Part shown: piece after piece, positions 2,905-10,871 of the stretch
How positions within the stretch are numbered: position 1 is the first letter of the stretch
How the letters are laid out: every line of letters starts with the position of its first letter
Origin: an uncultured Pseudomonadales bacterium
Lineage (GTDB): Bacteria > Patescibacteriota > Microgenomatia > UBA1400 > PJMF01
DNA: 42,156 bases
Assembly: GCA_964607125.1 (NCBI GenBank)
Contig: CAZSHY010000003.1
Location: 1 to 42,156, forward strand
Direction of reading: 5' to 3'
Notes under the pieces: generated by a model
Told to the model about the DNA's origin: nothing
What the model saw: the letters and a program-made list of their open reading frames with translations, nothing else
Databases searched by the model: none
Position numbers and translations under genes: made by a program

Positions 2905-4110
2905 ATGGCTATGGTTGCGCATCCTGAAAATAAGTACCACTCCCTCTTTAACCAATTTGTGGAAAATTACACCCCAGATGCTGATCAGAATGAGGTGCTG
3001 GCCGAACGCATCATCGGGACTGTTCGAGAGTTACTATCTGTCGGGTCAAAAACAAGCACAATCGCCGCCTACCTCATCATTCGACAATATGGGGATGCGA
3101 TAGCAGAAGTATGTCGTGCCCTGCCCACTCCTTTTGTTAGCACCAAGGTTTTATTTGAGACCGACCCTGCAACACGGCAAGTCACTCGGGCGGGAAAGCT
3201 GGTTGCGTATCATCTCAGTCGACGACCACTTCATTTCAGTTTCCCCGCTTGGGCAACTACGCCATTATTATTGGCAAATTTGTACACGACTGAGGAAACT
3301 AGACGACGCGGTGTGGCAAAGCAGTTAATTGGACGAGTCGTGACTGGTAATGCAAATGCAAAAAAACAACTTTTTGCTACAACCAGCCCCGACAATCAAG
3401 CCTCTCAGGCGAGTTTTAGAGCCCACGGTTTTCAAATCGAGCGTCAACAAGGCTATTTTTCCAAATATGTTCGTTTGTTTAGACATCCTGAGCCGCATGA
3501 GCTAAGTGGATCAATGAACAGCGACTATGCAAGCTATGATCCATTCGCTGGACTAGATCCCTATGGTCGTATGATTGACCTTGGCGCAAGCGAAAGGTTT
3601 GATCTTAGCAATTGTTTTAGAAGTGCGAACTCTAATCCCGAGTTAGGACTTCCAGAGATAACTCAAACGGCCATGGATGCGCTCCGACGTTCAATCTACC
3701 TGCCCTCTTGGCTGCTCGCCTATCGTGATGAAGTCACACCACGACATGATTTCCCCATTTTACTTGAGGTGAGGCGCTCCCTTGAGGGGAAGAAAACAAC
3801 ACATGAGCCGGTGGCATACGTTATTCCGGAAACATTAGCCACCTACCCCAAAACATTCGCCTGGTCTACTCCAGAGATGCAAGAGCAACGAGACTTTGCC
3901 GGCCACACTTTTGTTGTGATTAATCCCAAGCTTACACCTGAGCAAGTCTGGGAGTTACTTACTAGCTACTGGTCTGAAATGGGATTTGGCCGGTGGATTA
4001 CGATTGCGCAGGTTAGTCCACGAGGCAGACTACCCGGATCAATGCCTGATCACTTGCAAAAAAACGAGCAAATCGTGATGATGCAGCATCCCGATCCACT
4101 TGATAACTAG
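2905..4110 (+). CDS. GNAT-domain protein with an uncharacterised ~200-aa C-terminal extension
   Basis: GNAT motif-A-like RRRGVAKQLIGRVV followed by FRAHGF in the N-terminal half. I do not recognise the C-terminal half. The second ATG at 2911 lies 6 nt after a TATAAT box (2899-2904) and may be the true leaderless start. Confidence 0.75.
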   Translation: MAMVAHPENKYHSLFNQFVENYTPDADQNEVLAERIIGTVRELLSVGSKTSTIAAYLIIRQYGDAIAEVCRALPTPFVSTKVLFETDPATRQVTRAGKLVAYHLSRRPLHFSFPAWATTPLLLANLYTTEETRRRGVAKQLIGRVVTGNANAKKQLFATTSPDNQASQASFRAHGFQIERQQGYFSKYVRLFRHPEPHELSGSMNSDYASYDPFAGLDPYGRMIDLGASERFDLSNCFRSANSNPELGLPEITQTAMDALRRSIYLPSWLLAYRDEVTPRHDFPILLEVRRSLEGKKTTHEPVAYVIPETLATYPKTFAWSTPEMQEQRDFAGHTFVVINPKLTPEQVWELLTSYWSEMGFGRWITIAQVSPRGRLPGSMPDHLQKNEQIVMMQHPDPLDN

Positions 4111-5066
4111 GCAAAGTAATTGGCGACGCCAATCTTTTGTAAAAGCCGCTGGTACTTTTTGGGATCGAGTGTATAAAAACTAGGCAGCAAAGGTAGAAAA
4201 TCCGGATTATAAGATACGGCTTTATCGACATCAGCCAGCGCGCACTTGCCAATGTAAAGGCTCGTCGGGTCAAATTGCCTGTCAGCCAGCCATCGCCACA
4301 CCTGAATCATGCCCTGAAAGTAGCACAGGTCTTTGGTAAAGCCACCGGGCTGACTGGTATCTGTCATGCCGCGTTTTTGGCGAAAAACTATGTCCCACCG
4401 ACGCTCGGGGTCTTGAACAAAAGGTGCCAGCTCTCGCCAGACTTCAGCAAACGAACCCTGTTGGGCCCAAGCCACAGCCAGATAACGAAGTGCAGAATTA
4501 AAGGCAGAATTGAACTCGCGAGGCAGTAAGCTATGAAGAGCCGCTAGTCCTTCTTCTGTAGGCAAATACTCGCTGAATCCAAACTTTTTTTTCTGCTTGT
4601 ACCAGGGTTGTTGCTCGTAGTTGATCCGCCGCAAAGCATGCGTGCCAATTTCATGGTACATCATGGACAGCAGTCCTTCTTTTCTAAAAAAACAGGGCAG
4701 CCTCAGCTTAACGGTGTCAGTGGTGATAGCAGCCCGAGTGATAAAAGTGCTAGACCAAACCACGCTAAATCGGTCAGCAATTTGGTGCATAGAAAGGTAG
4801 GAATGTACCTTGGCATCTACTTGAGCTTGAGTTAGCTCACTGCCCTCCATCATCCACAGATCTTGTTCGTTGCGGCCAAAATATGCCTGTTTGACAATCT
4901 TTTCTGCAAGTTGTACCAACTCTGGCGTGGGCAAGCCATATGTCGTTAGGTCTTGGTTGGAAAAATCGTCTGCGTAAACAAACTGGGGGTTGTAACTCGG
5001 GTTGGCCAAAAACCGTTCTTTTTCTGACAGTAAATTGGTTGGAATGAGTTTGCCCAAAAGTCCCAT
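4107..5066 (-). CDS. DUF1704 / QEGLA-motif family metallo-carboxypeptidase-like protein (MATCAP-related)
   Basis: HEIGTH (HExxxH) at aa 138-143 and TEEGLA at aa 170-175, corresponding to the family QEGLA motif. The gene starts 2 nt after the upstream ATP-grasp stop. Confidence 0.8.
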   Translation of the reverse strand: MGLLGKLIPTNLLSEKERFLANPSYNPQFVYADDFSNQDLTTYGLPTPELVQLAEKIVKQAYFGRNEQDLWMMEGSELTQAQVDAKVHSYLSMHQIADRFSVVWSSTFITRAAITTDTVKLRLPCFFRKEGLLSMMYHEIGTHALRRINYEQQPWYKQKKKFGFSEYLPTEEGLAALHSLLPREFNSAFNSALRYLAVAWAQQGSFAEVWRELAPFVQDPERRWDIVFRQKRGMTDTSQPGGFTKDLCYFQGMIQVWRWLADRQFDPTSLYIGKCALADVDKAVSYNPDFLPLLPSFYTLDPKKYQRLLQKIGVANYFA

Positions 5067-5068
5067 GA

Positions 5069-6355
5069 TTACTCTTCTGTTTCGCCTATTAAGAATCCTT
5101 GCACATCCTTGCGGCCGAGCTCAATTTTATGGTTGGTTCGGTTGAGGCGTTTGCTGACTACTACAGCTGTCTCAACTTTATGTCCCTTGAGCTTAAAACT
5201 TAAACTGACCACGGGCACCTTGCCCTCGATCTCTTCCTGTTGGCGCCAAAGCAAGTCTTCCAGGTCAACCAGGCCTAACTCTTTTGCCAGCTGTTCACTA
5301 ATAGCAGATCGATAGCGGCCAGTGTTAACTAAGACGTCAAAGTTGTGGAGTTTGCCATGATCGTCAAAAACGCTAATGGTAGGATTGGTACTGATGATTT
5401 TGAGACCTTCTTCAATTTTGATGTTATCTGCAAAGCTCTCGGCAAAGAGTGCTTGAGAAATTTTGACGCCATGCTTGGCATCGCGGACTTCTAGTCCCTC
5501 AACCCGTTCAAGTCTCCGCTTGAGTCCAGCCCGATTACACAGTTGAATAGATAAACCGGGGAAACCGTTAAGCTCAACAATCATCGGCCCCTTCTCTGCA
5601 TGCACAAACAGATCGGCGCCCATAAACTGATAGCCAGCGGCATTTGAGGCTGTCACGGCAGTTTCAAGGAGCTTGGTCCAGTTGGGGATAATTATGCCGT
5701 TGACCTTTTTTTTGGTGCCTGGAAAATGGGTAATAAAGCCAGATTTGCCGGTGATGCCGTAGGTAGTTACACCGGTGGCCATGTCCACGCCCAAGCCGAT
5801 GGCCCCCTGGTCTAAATTGGCTTTGCCTTGTGATTCCTTGGTGGGAATGCGAGCCTCTGCCATGACTGGGACTGAGTTGAAAACTATAATTCTCACGTCC
5901 GGCGTGCCTTTGTAAGCGTACTTGGCTATGGCTGGATGAGCTACAATCATTTCTTCAATAATCGCTTTGTGGTCACTGCCCCACACGCCAAATTCACCAT
6001 CAAGGATGTTGTTCACATGAAGGCTTAAATCATCGGCGGTGAGGTTTTCGCCAAAACTATTTTTCCAAATGGCTTTGTCTGCAACTTTATCTTTGATTAC
6101 CCAAATACCCTTGCCTGCGCTGGAGTTGGCAGGCTTGATTACAAAGGGGACGGGCACGGCTTCCCAACGGAGCGCTTCTAAATCGGACATGGTGGAACAA
6201 ACGTGATACACCATGGCTGTGGGAATGTTGTGTCGGACGAGCAGCTCCTTGGTTTTGAGTTTGGAAAAACCATACTGCTTGGAGGCAGAAGTATTCAAAC
6301 TAGTGTATTTATGCCGAGCATTCATGCCCAGAATGTGTGAAGGTTTGACTGACAT
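5069..6355 (-). CDS. RimK-related ATP-grasp amino-acid ligase (alpha-L-glutamate-ligase-like) fused to a C-terminal retropepsin-like (PF05618-type) domain
   Basis: N-terminal ILGMNARH, FVIKPANSSAGKGIWV and ELNGFPGL are typical of the rimK-related ligase family. C-terminal aa ~320-428 carry FDVLVNTGRYRSAIS and HKIELGRKDVQGFLI, resembling the DTGA and LLGR motifs of RimB-like proteases. Confidence 0.85.
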   Translation of the reverse strand: MSVKPSHILGMNARHKYTSLNTSASKQYGFSKLKTKELLVRHNIPTAMVYHVCSTMSDLEALRWEAVPVPFVIKPANSSAGKGIWVIKDKVADKAIWKNSFGENLTADDLSLHVNNILDGEFGVWGSDHKAIIEEMIVAHPAIAKYAYKGTPDVRIIVFNSVPVMAEARIPTKESQGKANLDQGAIGLGVDMATGVTTYGITGKSGFITHFPGTKKKVNGIIIPNWTKLLETAVTASNAAGYQFMGADLFVHAEKGPMIVELNGFPGLSIQLCNRAGLKRRLERVEGLEVRDAKHGVKISQALFAESFADNIKIEEGLKIISTNPTISVFDDHGKLHNFDVLVNTGRYRSAISEQLAKELGLVDLEDLLWRQQEEIEGKVPVVSLSFKLKGHKVETAVVVSKRLNRTNHKIELGRKDVQGFLIGETEE

Positions 6356-6360
6356 GGGTT

Positions 6361-7365
6361 TTATTCCTCAATCAGTGATCTAAATCTAAGTCGTTCTGTC
6401 AGGCGGAGGCCCACAAATCTGCCTATTAGGATATTTAGTAGACCAGTTCCGATAATGAGCAGCTCAGGCTCAACCAAGGCAAATTTTTGAAGTGGCTCCC
6501 ACTTGAGGAAGAATCCAGACACAACTGACAGGCCCAGCGTTTCAATAGTCAGAGCGAGCGCATCGCTCGGCTTAGTTCTGCCTTGTGCATCGAGGAAGTT
6601 TTCTGCAAGCAGTACCAAAATCAAAATTGGGAAAATGTTGACACTCATGAGTGTCACCAAATCAAAAGCGGGTGCCAAGAGTATTAACCCAAAAATGCCC
6701 ATGGAGATGGTCCATAAAAGCAAGGCTGTACGGGGCAAATATGCGAGTTTGGTTGACTTAAGAAACCGCTTGGTCAACATGGCTGAGATGATAATGGCTA
6801 GGAAAATAATTACACCTTCCAGCACACCTGTAGAAACAAGAGCTACGGCGAGAACCGCTGGAATGTAAATACCAAATCCGCGCAGACCAATAACGTGCCG
6901 TGACGCAGCGATCAGCGAGGCAATCAGGGGAAATAGCAAAATTAAGACGATGATGTTGGGTTGAACACCTTGGGAAACTGAGTAGCGGATAGCATACTGA
7001 ATGAAGTTGTTCCAACTCAGTGGACCGGGATCGTTCTGTTCTAAGTAGGCAGCCAGCTTGCTCTTCTGCTTGCCTGTAGGCTCAGTAATATCTTGGTCTT
7101 TTTTGTCTTGAATCTTTTTTTCAACAGCGGCTGATGGAGTAGCCAGTTGGCCGCTGAGCGTGGCGATTGCTGACTCTGTAGCCATGATGTCGTCACCGGG
7201 CAGACCCACTCCCACTTCAATTGGGGCTGAGTCAAGGCTGGTTTGAGCCTGGGCGAGGCCAGAAGCTTTACTCCAACTAAGGGTCCAGGTGGTGAAGATG
7301 GCTAGTAACATGGCTAGTGACCATGTGAGTCGTTTCATGTGTGGTGTGGCTATGGTGGTTTTCAT
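6361..7365 (-). CDS. 7TM protein of the 7TM_transglut type (7 TM helices usually fused to an inactive transglutaminase)
   Basis: Signal/anchor sequence, a ~120-aa low-complexity ectodomain, then 7 hydrophobic helices. IGLRGFGIYIPAVLAVAL and the terminal GLRLTERLRF match family signatures. Its stop lies 5 nt before the ATP-grasp start. Confidence 0.8.
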   Translation of the reverse strand: MKTTIATPHMKRLTWSLAMLLAIFTTWTLSWSKASGLAQAQTSLDSAPIEVGVGLPGDDIMATESAIATLSGQLATPSAAVEKKIQDKKDQDITEPTGKQKSKLAAYLEQNDPGPLSWNNFIQYAIRYSVSQGVQPNIIVLILLFPLIASLIAASRHVIGLRGFGIYIPAVLAVALVSTGVLEGVIIFLAIIISAMLTKRFLKSTKLAYLPRTALLLWTISMGIFGLILLAPAFDLVTLMSVNIFPILILVLLAENFLDAQGRTKPSDALALTIETLGLSVVSGFFLKWEPLQKFALVEPELLIIGTGLLNILIGRFVGLRLTERLRFRSLIEE

Positions 7366-7407: not shown

Positions 7408-7764
7408 TCAAACCAAAATCTTGATCAAGGAGCTGAGAAAGCCAATCAACACCGACACCAGTAAAAGTGTGAAAAACCAATTTAAGGTTACTCCGCCCAA
7501 GACAATGCTCTGAATAATAAACCCGGGTACCAAATAAGTGGCCAGCCAAAGTAAAAATACGTTGATGACCGTTGAAAAAAGTCCCAAGGTGATGACATTA
7601 ATTGGCAAAAACAGGATTTTTAGAACCGGCTTGCCCAGTGAATTGAGCGCAGTCACAACCGCAGCGGCAATAATCAGGGCCATCCAGTTGGTGAAAGTAA
7701 TTGACGGAAAAATTCTAGAGAGAATAAAAAGCGTTAAACCGGTGCGCAAAATTGGGCGAAGCAT
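7408..7764 (-). CDS. Small 4-TM membrane protein, phage-holin-4_2 / DUF360 family
   Basis: 118 aa. LNSLGKPVLKILFLPINVITLGLFSTVINVFLLWLATYLVPGF matches the conserved core of this family. Confidence 0.75.
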   Translation of the reverse strand: MLRPILRTGLTLFILSRIFPSITFTNWMALIIAAAVVTALNSLGKPVLKILFLPINVITLGLFSTVINVFLLWLATYLVPGFIIQSIVLGGVTLNWFFTLLLVSVLIGFLSSLIKILV

Positions 7765-7783: not shown

Positions 7784-9190
7784 CTACTCCCTGAGCATAG
7801 CCTTGGTCCGCCTGCGACTATGTTGTTTTTTGGAAAATCGATGTGACTCATCCCGAATCTGCTGAATCAATTGTAGTGCCGGGTGGCTGCCGGGCAAAGT
7901 CAAAATGTCATAAGTCAAAGTATTTAAAAGTTGACGCTTGTCCGCTTCGGCCATCTGTCGAGGTCTAAAGCGAGGAATGACCAATCTGTCAGGATGTTTG
8001 GCTATACCAATTAGTGGCGTGGCCCAGTCCCAAACGCTCAATGCTGCGCGGACTTGTCCCTTGCCGCCATCAATTACGACTAGGTCTGGCCTACCCCACT
8101 CCGGGTGGTTTTGCCGACGGGTTAAAGCCTCCTTCATCATGTGGTAGTCATTGGGCGTATTAAGACTGCGAATGTTAAATAACCTATATTCATCGGTAGC
8201 AGACTCACCACCAACAAACGTGACCATTGCCACACTGGCCAAAGTACCAAAGGTATTACTTACATCGTAGCCCTCTATTCTATTTAGTGGATACTCAATG
8301 GGCACGCCCTGATGCTCATTGAGTACACGGCTCAAGTACTTGAGACCGTCACCTTTGAGCTCCTGCATTAATGCCGGCGTACTCAGCTCGGGACTAAGTT
8401 TTTTTTGCGGATGAGTAACGGCTTCTATCAGAGCAATTCGATCTCTAATGACAGCCGCATTTTCAAATGCTTCTGAATTAACCGCCTGAGTAAGTTGGCG
8501 TTGCAGATCATGGACCAAGTCATGCTTTTTTCCCTTTAGAAACAGCTCGAGCTGGCCAATCATTTCCTGGTAGGCCTCGGGAGTGATTGCGCCAATGCAA
8601 GCTCCAGAACAAAGTTGCAAATGGTGATAAAAGCAAGCTCTGCTTGGCTTGCTCGAGCCATTGCACCAGGGGAATATTGGCCTGACCAACTTAAGCACCT
8701 CATTTACTTTGTAGCCACTTTGAAATGGTCCAAGCAGCGTACCTGTTAGGTGACGGGTGATGATTTCTTTTTTTCTGACTCGCAAAACTTTAGGATACTT
8801 TTCGGATGTAATGTGAATATAAAGCGGGCTCTTATCATCTTTGAGCAACACGTTGTATTGTGGCTGGTAGGTACGGATCAACTGAGCTTCAGTTAGAAGT
8901 GCCTCAAGTTCACTAGCCAGAACTTGGAATTTAAGTTGCGAAGCGGTGGTTGAGAGTTGATGAATGCGGGCTGATAACCGACCTAGCTGAGCATATGACC
9001 GGACGCGGTTCTTGAGGTTTTTAGCTTTTCCGACGTATAAAACGGTGTTGTTTGCGTCGGAAAACCAATACACTCCCGGCTGTGAGGGTAGTGACGGCAA
9101 TACTGATGCCCACTCCAAGGAGGACGGTGGGATTGGTAAGTCGTCCGAAGATGGGTGGGGCGCTAATGATGGTGTGGTTGGTTGATTCAT
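7784..9190 (-). CDS. uvrC: Excinuclease ABC subunit C (short form lacking the C-terminal HhH2 domain)
   Basis: GIY-YIG (PGVYWF...LYVGKAKNLKNRVRSY), a UVR domain (AFENAAVIRDRIALIE), and an endonuclease domain (IEGYDVSN...IDGGKGQ). The start is uncertain: GTG 9214, ATG 9190 or TTG 9118. All of these overlap the upstream transglutaminase-like CDS. Confidence 0.9.
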   Translation of the reverse strand: MNQPTTPSLAPHPSSDDLPIPPSSLEWASVLPSLPSQPGVYWFSDANNTVLYVGKAKNLKNRVRSYAQLGRLSARIHQLSTTASQLKFQVLASELEALLTEAQLIRTYQPQYNVLLKDDKSPLYIHITSEKYPKVLRVRKKEIITRHLTGTLLGPFQSGYKVNEVLKLVRPIFPWCNGSSKPSRACFYHHLQLCSGACIGAITPEAYQEMIGQLELFLKGKKHDLVHDLQRQLTQAVNSEAFENAAVIRDRIALIEAVTHPQKKLSPELSTPALMQELKGDGLKYLSRVLNEHQGVPIEYPLNRIEGYDVSNTFGTLASVAMVTFVGGESATDEYRLFNIRSLNTPNDYHMMKEALTRRQNHPEWGRPDLVVIDGGKGQVRAALSVWDWATPLIGIAKHPDRLVIPRFRPRQMAEADKRQLLNTLTYDILTLPGSHPALQLIQQIRDESHRFSKKQHSRRRTKAMLRE

Positions 9191-10871
9191 AGACAATTTG
9201 GCCAGCGCTATCACGTATTGTAACAGTCGCGCGCTCCGCGCGCGGCAGGCTCCAGGTCTCAGTCAACAAAGTGATGGGCACCGCTCTAGATTCAAATGGT
9301 AGCAGCGCATCAATCTGACGAACCACATTGCCCACTGTCAGATTTAAGTCGTAAATGGCTGTGCCTGAGTTATTAGTCAGCGTTAAAATTGACAATCCAG
9401 GCACGGGTAAGCCAAAAAGCTGTTGTGATGAAATTCGGATATGGTATTCATTGGGAAGCTCTGGTGGTGCTTGAGTAAAGGTTATTTGAACGTCCTTGGT
9501 TGTACTATCCTGTGCTTTATAAAAACCAGCAGCGTATGGTGTGGTACTGGATACGCCATTGATGGCAAAAACAATGTGGTTGAGGTCAAACTGGTTGAAG
9601 TAATCCACCCCGCCTGTGGTGGCGCCCCAGGTTGGATCGATGGGCTGCCAGTTCCCACTCGCGGCATCATAGTATTCCGGCCAAGCATGGAGCACGTCAC
9701 CCTCCAAGCCGAGGGGTCGAAGTTTCTCATTTTGAGTGTAGGCAAAACCAGTCAGTCTTCTGGCCGGTATGCCCGCTGCGCGGGCAATCGTCACAAAAGT
9801 GTCGGTGAATTCTTGACAAACCGCTTGGTCGGGATTGGCGAGTGCATCGACTGCGCCGAGGCGATGAAGTTTTTGAGCTTCAGTCACGTCCGCATAGGTC
9901 AGAGTTTTAACCAGATAGTTGTAAATGTTGCTGGCAGTCGGATTCTGCTGAGCTAGATTGGTGATAGTTGGGTTTTGAACCTGCCAAAATGGCTGGGTAG
10001 ATAGGTGTTCCTTGAGTACGGTCTGGCCCGGCGTGTTGTTTCGCTCCAAGGTGACGGTGATGGTGGCCATCAGGTCAACGGTCGTGATGGAGTTGGCAGG
10101 AATGCGGTAGGTAGCTATCCAGTTGCCGTCTGGGTCACGCTTGAGAGTCGCAGGCAAGGGAGAAAGTGACTCATAACTGACTTTTTGAAACTGTGTGTCT
10201 GGCGGCAGGGCAATTTGACCAACAGCTTCAGACGAACCTGTGTTTTCCAGCTGATATCTGATATTCGCCCCATAGTATTGGGTGTCGCCGAAAAAGAGCG
10301 TTACTCCGCTGGCTTGTTCACCGGCAAAGGTAGTAATGGTATGTTCTGTAGTAGTTTGCGTGCTGGTTGGCGTAGGCTCGGCTCGCTTGGGAGCGCCAAA
10401 TTTGAGAGGGGTTTGAATGACGGTAGTTAATTGATCGAAGGCTTGGGCGGTGCCCAACTTGGGCGCATGAAACTCAAGGACACGGCCGCCAATAGTAGCC
10501 AAATCGTTGGTCAGGTACTCAATTGTAAAAACGCGCGACTTGCCCTCACCTACTACCTGGTCTGGGAAATCGAGGGCAATGGTGGTGGCAGTGGGTGTAG
10601 AGACGACATTAGGTGCCAGCGGTGAGTTTTTATAAGTGGCTAGAACACTTTTTATGTCACCTGAGTTGGTTTTGAGAGCGTACTGCTTAATAAATACGGC
10701 TGGAGTTTTATTGGTGATGGAAATTTGGTGGACTACCCGAGTATTGCCTGATTCATCCACCGTATATGTGGATTGGAGTTGGCTGGTAAACTGTTCAGCA
10801 GCCAGAACGGGAATTGGCAAAGCGCAAAAGATGCAGAATAAAAACAGTAGAGAAATTAATCTTGAGTTCAC
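9021..10871 (-). CDS. Secreted/anchored transglutaminase-like protein
   Basis: GTG start and signal peptide LISLLFLFCIFCALPIPVLAAEQ. The core CQEFTDTFVTIARAAGIPARRLTGFAY ... HAWPEYY ... IDPTWG has Cys-His-Asp intact. The C-terminus is a TM helix plus the basic tail RRKQHRFIRRKS. Confidence 0.88.
   Translation of the reverse strand: MNSRLISLLFLFCIFCALPIPVLAAEQFTSQLQSTYTVDESGNTRVVHQISITNKTPAVFIKQYALKTNSGDIKSVLATYKNSPLAPNVVSTPTATTIALDFPDQVVGEGKSRVFTIEYLTNDLATIGGRVLEFHAPKLGTAQAFDQLTTVIQTPLKFGAPKRAEPTPTSTQTTTEHTITTFAGEQASGVTLFFGDTQYYGANIRYQLENTGSSEAVGQIALPPDTQFQKVSYESLSPLPATLKRDPDGNWIATYRIPANSITTVDLMATITVTLERNNTPGQTVLKEHLSTQPFWQVQNPTITNLAQQNPTASNIYNYLVKTLTYADVTEAQKLHRLGAVDALANPDQAVCQEFTDTFVTIARAAGIPARRLTGFAYTQNEKLRPLGLEGDVLHAWPEYYDAASGNWQPIDPTWGATTGGVDYFNQFDLNHIVFAINGVSSTTPYAAGFYKAQDSTTKDVQITFTQAPPELPNEYHIRISSQQLFGLPVPGLSILTLTNNSGTAIYDLNLTVGNVVRQIDALLPFESRAVPITLLTETWSLPRAERATVTIRDSAGQIVYESTNHTIISAPPIFGRLTNPTVLLGVGISIAVTTLTAGSVLVFRRKQHRFIRRKS

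Follow-up and report, generated by a model that had tools for sequence, protein, structure and literature searches.

An operon for a 7TM_transglut membrane protein, an ATP-grasp ligase and a MATCAP-type carboxypeptidase in Patescibacteria: a candidate system for making and trimming an acidic peptide tail

The DNA stretch analysed here (contig CAZSHY010000003.1 of assembly GCA_964607125.1, positions 1 to 42,156 of the forward strand; hereafter the window, 42,156 nucleotides in full) carries three tightly packed minus-strand genes, which encode a seven-transmembrane (7TM) protein of the 7TM_transglut family (334 aa; 6361..7365), an ATP-grasp ligase related to RloC and RimK (428 aa; 5069..6355) and a gluzincin metallocarboxypeptidase of the MATCAP type (319 aa; 4107..5066). 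In all likelihood, the trio forms a single module by which an acidic peptide with alpha linkages is built and cut back at the membrane. More tentatively, it is proposed that this takes place as a cycle on the cytoplasmic tail of the 7TM protein, in which the ligase would extend an oligo-Glu end, a retropepsin-fold domain with Asn in place of the catalytic Asp would hold it and the MATCAP-type enzyme would trim it. This mechanism is drawn from sequence, structure prediction and comparative genomics, and it is putative as regards the acceptor, the amino acid that is added, the role of the clamp and the physiological outcome. The layout itself is as the original prediction had it, with the genes assigned from open reading frames (ORFs) and the Pfam families PF14402, PF14397 and PF08014, and separated by spacers of 5 nt (6356-6360) and 2 nt (5067-5068), and the quoted motifs GMNARH, FVIKPANSSAGKG, HEIGTH and TEEGLA are all present.

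The arrangement of the three genes is not a chance adjacency. In a scan of 77 loci, with one genome taken per species, the order 7TM gene, ligase gene with the extra domain and peptidase gene on one strand was observed in 47 of the 47 loci in which peptidase identity was at least 34% and enough upstream DNA was available. The junctions of the trio in related loci are mostly 4-nt overlaps or gaps of less than 25 nt, a 4-nt overlap of ligase and peptidase genes being found in about 20 loci. Additionally, L081-L083 contain the trio among other neighbouring genes, at a peptidase identity of only 34%, and a further divergent peptidase gene directly follows that of a 425-aa ligase in L084. In two other lineages of the Candidate Phyla Radiation, one ORF joins the ATP-grasp domain to the MATCAP domain through a degenerate retropepsin-like linker; it has 779+ aa in the Peregrinibacteria locus L057 (146-2485) and 809 aa in the Gracilibacteria locus L061 (5618-8047), where the neighbouring 7TM protein (4043-5614) bears a PKD ectodomain. 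A third fusion, located on the plasmid CP007061 of Halobacterium sp. DL1 (L080, 4170-5924), is an unannotated 584-aa ORF in which a 7TM_transglut-like domain is joined to a TIGR02291-type ATP-grasp domain. The fusions and the recurrence in a different gene context argue that the three components are functionally coupled. Thus, the gene-neighbourhood comparison proposed with the original prediction found the trio conserved far beyond the genome of the window, and the suspected pairing of ligase and peptidase was supported by their fusions.

The peptidase belongs to a family of more than 550 close homologues of about 320 aa, of which nearly all the named ones come from Patescibacteria (Paceibacterota, Microgenomates or Woesebacteria), and the combination of 7TM protein, Rlo-type ligase and MATCAP-type peptidase was seen only in Patescibacteria-type contigs. 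As to database labels, many metagenome-assembled genomes (MAGs) bearing the operon are titled 'uncultured Pseudomonadales bacterium', one is titled 'Methylococcaceae' and one 'Flavobacteriaceae' (L002, L004, L010-L013, L028 and others). Their synteny and protein identities of 50-60% fit MAGs of Paceibacterota or Patescibacteria, and two isolate names contain 'PATE'. These titles are probably taxonomy-label artefacts or binning errors.

The 7TM protein matched PF14402 (7TM_transglut) with 89.8 bits (gathering cut-off 25; 2.5e-25) over residues 119-331 (6373..7011, minus strand), a core that agrees with hydropathy and with the AlphaFold2 (AF2) model and that holds 59 invariant columns in an alignment of 54 homologues. 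The protein is composed of an N-terminal signal or anchor helix, an ectodomain of about 100 aa that is partly of low complexity, seven helices and a tail of 14 residues. Its AF2 model is all-helical, with confident helices and a predicted local distance difference test (pLDDT) score of 80.4, and a Foldseek search of the Protein Data Bank (PDB) with this model returned no significant structural neighbour, the best matches being NqrD/E- and RnfA/E-like with E values of at least 2. The protein does not belong to RloB, which is defined by an inactive periplasmic transglutaminase domain and a full-length score of at least 900. Its match to the RloB model NF052267 reached 58.7 bits against the cut-off of 900 and covered only profile positions 297-507 of 508, the C-terminal 7TM half, and no significant Pfam domain was detected in its N-terminal 118 residues (one sub-threshold match, E 0.19), nor any transglutaminase domain.

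The feature of this protein on which the proposed cycle turns is its C-terminal end, RLTERLRFRSLIEE (6364..6405, minus strand, with the terminal Glu-Glu at 6364-6369), which is the putative acceptor or docking tail. Both this tail and the loops rich in Lys and Arg were predicted to be cytoplasmic from hydropathy and the positive-inside pattern, and the low pLDDT of the last residues (47-60) suggests that the tail is flexible. Two or more Glu residues close the sequence of 119 of the 120 database homologues (EE in 36, EEE in 39, EEEE in 42 and EEEEE in 2), and the run of two to five is preceded by a fixed RFR-x-[IL]-[IM] motif. A Glu-Glu end is also present in nearly all genome loci, including the Gracilibacteria locus L061 (...HDIEE) and the divergent L081 (...IIDTEE), against a background of about 4% of long ORFs in these loci that end in EE, a figure in which the ligases are still counted. 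On the other hand, two proteobacterial RloB proteins, encoded in operons without a MATCAP gene, end in ...LAKARS and ...PGKDK. The suggestion that the 7TM protein could be the target of the enzymes, which was only one of several roles first considered for it, thereby gained concrete support.

The ligase core (residues 1-295; 5471..6355, minus strand) is of the RloC, or TIGR02291, type. It matched PF14397 (ATPgrasp_ST) with 181.3 bits (gathering cut-off 31.4; 3e-53) and, more weakly, PF08443 (RimK) with 30.9 bits. TIGR02291 was its best-scoring model, with 231.8 bits (9.5e-69), below the equivalog cut-off of 314.2. Scores against the RimK-family models TIGR00768 (36 bits; cut-off 143.4) and PRK10446 (15.2 bits; cut-off 331) fell far short, and the match to the TTL family PF03133 (16 bits; cut-off 20.1; E 0.0075) involved 47 residues only. 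The motifs GMNARH and FVIKPANSSAGKG are at residues 10 and 71, respectively, and the ATP-grasp residues K74, the Gly loop S78-G83, E134/E135, D248 and E261-x-N263 are invariant in 49 relatives. The protein is 33-36% identical to the ligases of the Legionella and Aeromonas rlo operons, which, at 314-321 aa, do not have the 133-aa C-terminal domain of the window ligase. The first description of this gene product was right as to its ATP-grasp identity and missed a fused domain with the fold of a protease.

This additional domain (residues 296-428; 5072..5470, minus strand) was modelled by AF2 with a pLDDT of 79.7, and Foldseek matched it to PDB entries with a probability of 1.00. The retroviral-protease-like (RVP) domains of Ddi1 were on top (E 3.8e-5), and the DUF785 protein 2pma and Pseudomonas fluorescens RloA (9g58) were among the further matches (TMq 0.52-0.53). 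A profile search against PDB sequences returned nothing, and only the fold search resolved the domain; sub-threshold Pfam matches were obtained to gag-asp_proteas in 20 of 32 members and to Asp_protease_2 in 16 of 32. The domain is thus a member of the retropepsin fold (clan AA) that lacks the catalytic D-T/S-G motif. In the position at which retropepsins have the catalytic Asp, the window ligase carries N344-T-G, within the motif V-N-T-G-R-Y-R (Asn codon at 5324-5326), and among the 49 relatives this position is occupied by Asn in 41, Asp in 5 and Lys in 2. The Thr of the motif and R347 are invariant, and R349 is kept in 46 of the 49. An hhalign comparison with a single Aeromonas RloA sequence also set NTG on DTG, by a weak match (E 0.037) of 19 columns. 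Judging from these residues, the fused domain is a probable pseudo-protease. Since retropepsins with an Asp-to-Asn change, such as the D25N protease of human immunodeficiency virus 1 (HIV-1), bind substrate without cutting it, the replacement of Asp by Asn led to the proposal that this domain may hold an acidic peptide like a clamp, without catalytic activity.

The peptidase belongs to the MATCAP family PF08014 (DUF1704), with a score of 86.8 bits (gathering cut-off 27; 1.9e-24), an HExxxH motif followed by a downstream Glu, and a full-length match to the structure of human MATCAP/KIAA0895L (7z5g; E 3.5e-39), in which residues 5-312 align with residues 5-318 at about 35% identity. The HExxxH motif, HEIGTH (residues 138-143, with H138, E139 and H143), lies at 4638-4655, and the metal-binding Glu, E171/E172 of TEEGLA (residues 170-175), at 4551-4556, both on the minus strand. 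H138, E139, H143 and E171/E172 are invariant in 41 relatives, and the counterparts of the active-site Glu residues in TMCP1, E281 and E316, are essential, their mutation abolishing activity (PMC10499314). The placement of the gene product in DUF1704/QEGLA was accurate for the family, not for the QEGLA subfamily, as TIGR02421 gave 88.1 bits against an equivalog cut-off of 338.65. By BLAST, operon-type peptidases reached 130-170 bits (32-35% identity) with starfish MATCAP and only 45-75 bits with gammaproteobacterial QEGLA proteins, while animal and proteobacterial DUF1704 proteins gave 40-58 bits with each other; the window peptidase itself scored 161 bits with starfish MATCAP and 62 bits with a gammaproteobacterial QEGLA member. 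From these similarities, the peptidase is a member of a eukaryote-like MATCAP subfamily, far nearer to animal MATCAP than to proteobacterial DUF1704/QEGLA. In cluster look-ups, its long database matches were animal or protist KIAA0895(L) proteins.

When 177 sequences of the MATCAP family were placed in a neighbour-joining tree, the distances proved saturated and the tree could not be rooted on the proteobacterial group, so that it was used only to see which short prokaryotic sequences adjoin the eukaryotic clade and not to judge the direction of transfer. In this rough tree, the nearest non-eukaryotic relatives of that clade were proteins such as P0263 and P0253, both of which are encoded beside a ligase gene, P0263 within a full 7TM-ligase-MATCAP operon. 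A short MATCAP of 314 aa fell inside the eukaryotic clade; it is encoded by a compact, apparently eukaryotic metagenome contig (L085, 188-3175; RhoGEF/VPS9 genes), with a tubulin gene two genes away.

Taken together, the three family assignments of the original prediction were sustained at the level of Pfam, and its suggested check against TIGR02291 and TIGR02421 found matches to both models without reaching either equivalog cut-off. As all three proteins exceed Pfam gathering scores but remain below NCBIfam cut-offs, they are members of these Pfam families and not equivalogs of the proteobacterial proteins. No signal peptide was detected on the ligase or the peptidase, and PADLOC matched no anti-phage defence model to the trio or to its two neighbours.

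Of the characterised systems, the nearest is Pseudomonas rloABC (Lormand et al., mBio 2025), in which RloA is a secreted retropepsin, RloB an inactive-transglutaminase-7TM protein and RloC an ATP-grasp protein (PMC12239564). The secreted retropepsins RloA1-3 cut Glu-rich sequences, and their loss causes hypo-osmotic sensitivity, antibiotic sensitivity and defects in biofilm and shape, which deletion of rloB or rloC suppresses (PMC12239564). For the pair of 7TM protein and ligase, the earlier statement that no function has been demonstrated is consequently outdated, as rloB and rloC have genetic phenotypes. The canonical rlo layout was verified in Legionella and Aeromonas records, where the ligases are without the extra domain and RloA has DTG. 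Both systems share the PF14402 family of the 7TM protein, a TIGR02291-like ATP-grasp subfamily and a retropepsin-fold component, and the 7TM and ligase genes are adjacent in identical order. However, the retropepsin-like unit of the window is fused to the C-terminus of the ligase, has no signal peptide and bears Asn for the catalytic Asp; its 7TM protein, devoid of a transglutaminase ectodomain, terminates in oligo-Glu, which the two proteobacterial RloB proteins compared lack; and a gene for a MATCAP-type metallocarboxypeptidase is added to the operon.

Two other tail-modifying systems are instructive. RimK adds Glu to the C-terminus of RpsF, and RimB cuts Glu-rich sequences (PMC12239564). 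The RimK/RimB/S6 system resembles the module of the window in combining an ATP-grasp alpha-L-glutamate ligase with a retropepsin-type partner and a peptidase that shortens the tail, and in having as acceptor a protein C-terminus that ends in Glu-Glu, which for the window is putative. In the window, by contrast, the ligase lies outside the RimK family, a membrane protein takes the place of S6 as putative acceptor, trimming would fall to a gluzincin exopeptidase, and the retropepsin domain seems to have lost its activity. In the tubulin tail cycle of TTL/TTLL and MATCAP/TMCP1-2, the MATCAP-family enzymes TMCP1/2 strip tubulin tails of C-terminal Tyr and Glu and shorten poly-Glu chains, an activity sensitive to mutation of the penultimate Glu (PMC10499314). 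Here the likeness lies in the pairing of a full-length MATCAP homologue with an ATP-grasp ligase and in a candidate substrate that is a flexible acidic tail ending in ...EE, as in detyrosinated alpha-tubulin. Unlike that cycle, the window system has a ligase from outside the TTL family, no tubulin, an operonic gene arrangement and a putative substrate.

The view that the trio occurs mainly in Proteobacteria did not hold, since these bacteria carry two separate systems, rloABC and a triad that was found in Gammaproteobacteria (L066, 5106-8914; L069, 4900-8628). This triad is composed of an FGase-like amidohydrolase (PF05013), a long DUF1704/QEGLA protein and a GshB-like ATP-grasp protein (PF02955). 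Its DUF1704/QEGLA (TIGR02421) protein also belongs to PF08014 and also adjoins an ATP-grasp ligase, but it is of a subfamily distinct from that of the window peptidase and longer (about 625-635 aa, of which about 270 form an N-terminal extension), and its partners include no 7TM gene. Among the genes that Photobacterium induces at low salinity are those for RimK, for a QEGLA protein and, next to the latter by locus tag, for a GshB-annotated protein (PMC10308900). Considered together, the window operon and the gammaproteobacterial triad indicate that the placement of a MATCAP-fold peptidase beside an ATP-grasp ligase recurs in at least two architectures. No published description of the Patescibacteria-type operon, of the Asn-retropepsin fusion or of the oligo-Glu tail was found in a search that did not extend to the amidoligase survey of Iyer et al. 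2009, which probably covers related neighbourhoods.

In the cycle tentatively proposed here, the 7TM protein would present its flexible cytoplasmic C-terminus, ending in Glu-Glu(-Glu...), to the ATP-grasp ligase, which would use ATP to extend it by alpha-linked residues, most probably L-glutamate, in a manner modelled on RimK acting at the ...EE end of ribosomal protein S6. Glu is taken to be the most likely residue because of the RimK/TIGR02291 ancestry of the ligase and because the encoded run drifts between two and five residues, like a hard-coded primer. The retropepsin-fold domain, in which Asp has become Asn and two nearby Arg residues are kept, would clamp the acidic tail uncut, either recruiting the substrate or holding the growing chain. 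The MATCAP-type metallocarboxypeptidase would then take residues off the tail end singly, as MATCAP/TMCP does on ...EEY or poly-Glu tubulin tails. The balance between ligase and peptidase would set the tail length and so tune the function of the 7TM protein, which, by analogy with rloABC, probably concerns envelope or osmotic stress.

Several points weigh against this proposal. The residue added cannot be read from the sequence, and Glu is therefore a presumption. The contrast between Glu-Glu tails beside a MATCAP gene and other tails in its absence is drawn with two proteobacterial RloB sequences only; a metagenome scan for more proteobacterial RloB C-termini gave only 4 Aeromonas-like loci, and a plasmid tblastn search returned only the same two sequences. 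Since the trio lies in a wider block (orf1017-TGase-uvrC-4TM-trio...mnmA, TGase being the transglutaminase-like gene and 4TM a small gene for a protein with four transmembrane helices) that is syntenic in about 40 loci, co-occurrence alone is weak evidence within the clade. In the Halobacterium fusion, the C-terminus of the 7TM domain is not free, so that a free tail is no universal need of 7TM/ATP-grasp systems. Additionally, Pseudomonas RloA acts in the periplasm (PMC12239564), which suggests that the product of the Rlo ligase reaches the far side of the membrane and is not a cytoplasmic tail. Finally, the ligase too tends to have an acidic C-terminus, with E as the last residue of 64 of 120 homologues, and the enzyme may modify itself.

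Some of these points fit better with a pathway for a free peptide, in which the ligase would polymerise free glutamate or another amino acid, the 7TM protein would anchor the enzyme and export or present the product, and the peptidase would recycle or limit the cytoplasmic polymer, leaving the 7TM tail as a docking or primer-mimicking motif only. RimK also makes free poly-alpha-glutamate, and the rescue of RloA loss by deletion of rloB or rloC (PMC12239564) implies a product dependent on ligase and 7TM protein that has to be cleaved outside the cytoplasm. The Halobacterium fusion, devoid of a free tail, and the low-salinity induction of RimK and of the QEGLA protein near the GshB-like ligase in Photobacterium (PMC10308900) point the same way. 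However, the retropepsin-like domain of this clade sits in the cytoplasm, fused to the ligase and with Asn for the catalytic Asp, there is no secreted protease gene beside the trio, and the 7TM fold was unlike that of any known transporter in Foldseek. Pure docking, moreover, would leave unexplained why the Glu run is strictly C-terminal and varies from two to five in length, and such a pathway, although the strongest rival of the tail cycle, is rated as rather unlikely. Still lower stands the idea that the enzymes act on another substrate, such as ribosomal protein S6 or the acidic C-terminus of the ligase, with the 7TM protein serving only as anchor, regulator or sensor. Its attraction comes from the RimK relationship of the ligase, from the frequency of terminal E in ligase homologues and from the sensor-like ectodomains that 7TM proteins of this family bear elsewhere (PKD in L061, inactive transglutaminase in RloB). 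But the acidic end is much laxer in the ligase, with 56 of 120 homologues lacking a terminal E against 1 of 120 for the 7TM protein, the operon holds no gene for S6 or any other candidate, and the strictly conserved terminal Glu run would have no explanation, which makes this alternative improbable.

That the three proteins are functionally unrelated and kept together merely by the synteny of a compact genome can almost be dismissed. The conservation of the wider block in about 40 loci is what such an account would predict, but the ligase-peptidase and 7TM-ligase fusions of other lineages contradict it, as do the recurrence of the trio in a different gene context, the overlapping start and stop codons and the genetic tie between 7TM protein and ligase in the rlo operon (PMC12239564). 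A bolder extension of the tail cycle would regard the oligo-Glu end of the 7TM protein as the bacterial counterpart of the tubulin tail, an encoded primer whose length an ATP-grasp ligase writes and a MATCAP orthologue erases so as to control a membrane protein, and would derive the eukaryotic MATCAP/TMCP enzymes from an operon-type prokaryotic lineage; this is a speculative idea, held to be doubtful.

With regard to the surroundings of the trio, a minus-strand gene for a 118-aa protein with four transmembrane helices (7408-7764), assigned to Phage_holin_4_2 (PF04020, 3e-19), immediately precedes the 7TM gene and separates it from uvrC (7784-9214), so that the operon is near uvrC, as had been stated, and does not adjoin it directly. 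This holin-like gene and uvrC were considered as members of the module and set aside: both are syntenic in the clade, the holin-like gene in 45 loci, but they are absent from the independent context of L081, for which reason the four-helix protein is probably not part of the module. The mechanically called uvrC ORF (7784-9214, minus strand) starts with GTG at 9214 and shares about 190 nt with the 3' end of the transglutaminase-like gene, and the true start of uvrC probably lies further downstream. The transglutaminase-like gene itself (9021-10871, minus strand) precedes the trio by two genes and keeps its synteny in about 40 related loci. Its 616-aa product combines a signal peptide and a C-terminal transmembrane helix with a Transglut_core domain (PF01841, 1e-16) whose Cys and His are apparently intact (AVCQEF, LHAWPEYY). 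It is curious that 7TM proteins of the Rlo type usually bear an inactive transglutaminase ectodomain and that the 7TM protein of this clade has none, yet a Transglut_core gene is found nearby. On the other side of the operon, a 401-aa ORF (2905-4110, plus strand) with a weak GNAT acetyltransferase region (FR47/Acetyltransf_1) is convergent with the MATCAP-like gene, whose stop it overlaps by 4 nt. No homologue of it was present in any related locus, and the interval between the operon and mnmA is therefore a variable spot.

The operon is a variant within the Rlo/RimK-type ligase systems and the ligase/carboxypeptidase tail cycles and not a categorically new system. Its identity of about 55-70% across a clade of Patescibacteria with minimal genomes argues that the module does something important for its hosts. 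If the proposed cycle is true, a bacterial membrane protein would for the first time be seen to carry a reversible 'tail code' at its C-terminus, and two widespread and poorly understood families, 7TM_transglut and bacterial DUF1704/MATCAP, would gain a function. The cycle would also offer a concrete and cheap biochemical entry to the mechanism of the Rlo system, which in Pseudomonas and Vibrio has ties to osmotic tolerance, biofilm and antibiotic resistance, as a 14-residue peptide ending in ...LIEE and two soluble enzymes would be enough for an assay. Were the proposal true, the eukaryotic tubulin-tail trimming enzyme would originate in a prokaryotic ligase/peptidase operon. A bacterial peptidase so close to human MATCAP was unexpected, and together with the operonic ligase partner and the conserved ...EE(E)n tail it makes both the Rlo mechanism and the prokaryotic ancestry of the tubulin-tail enzymes testable by simple peptide assays.

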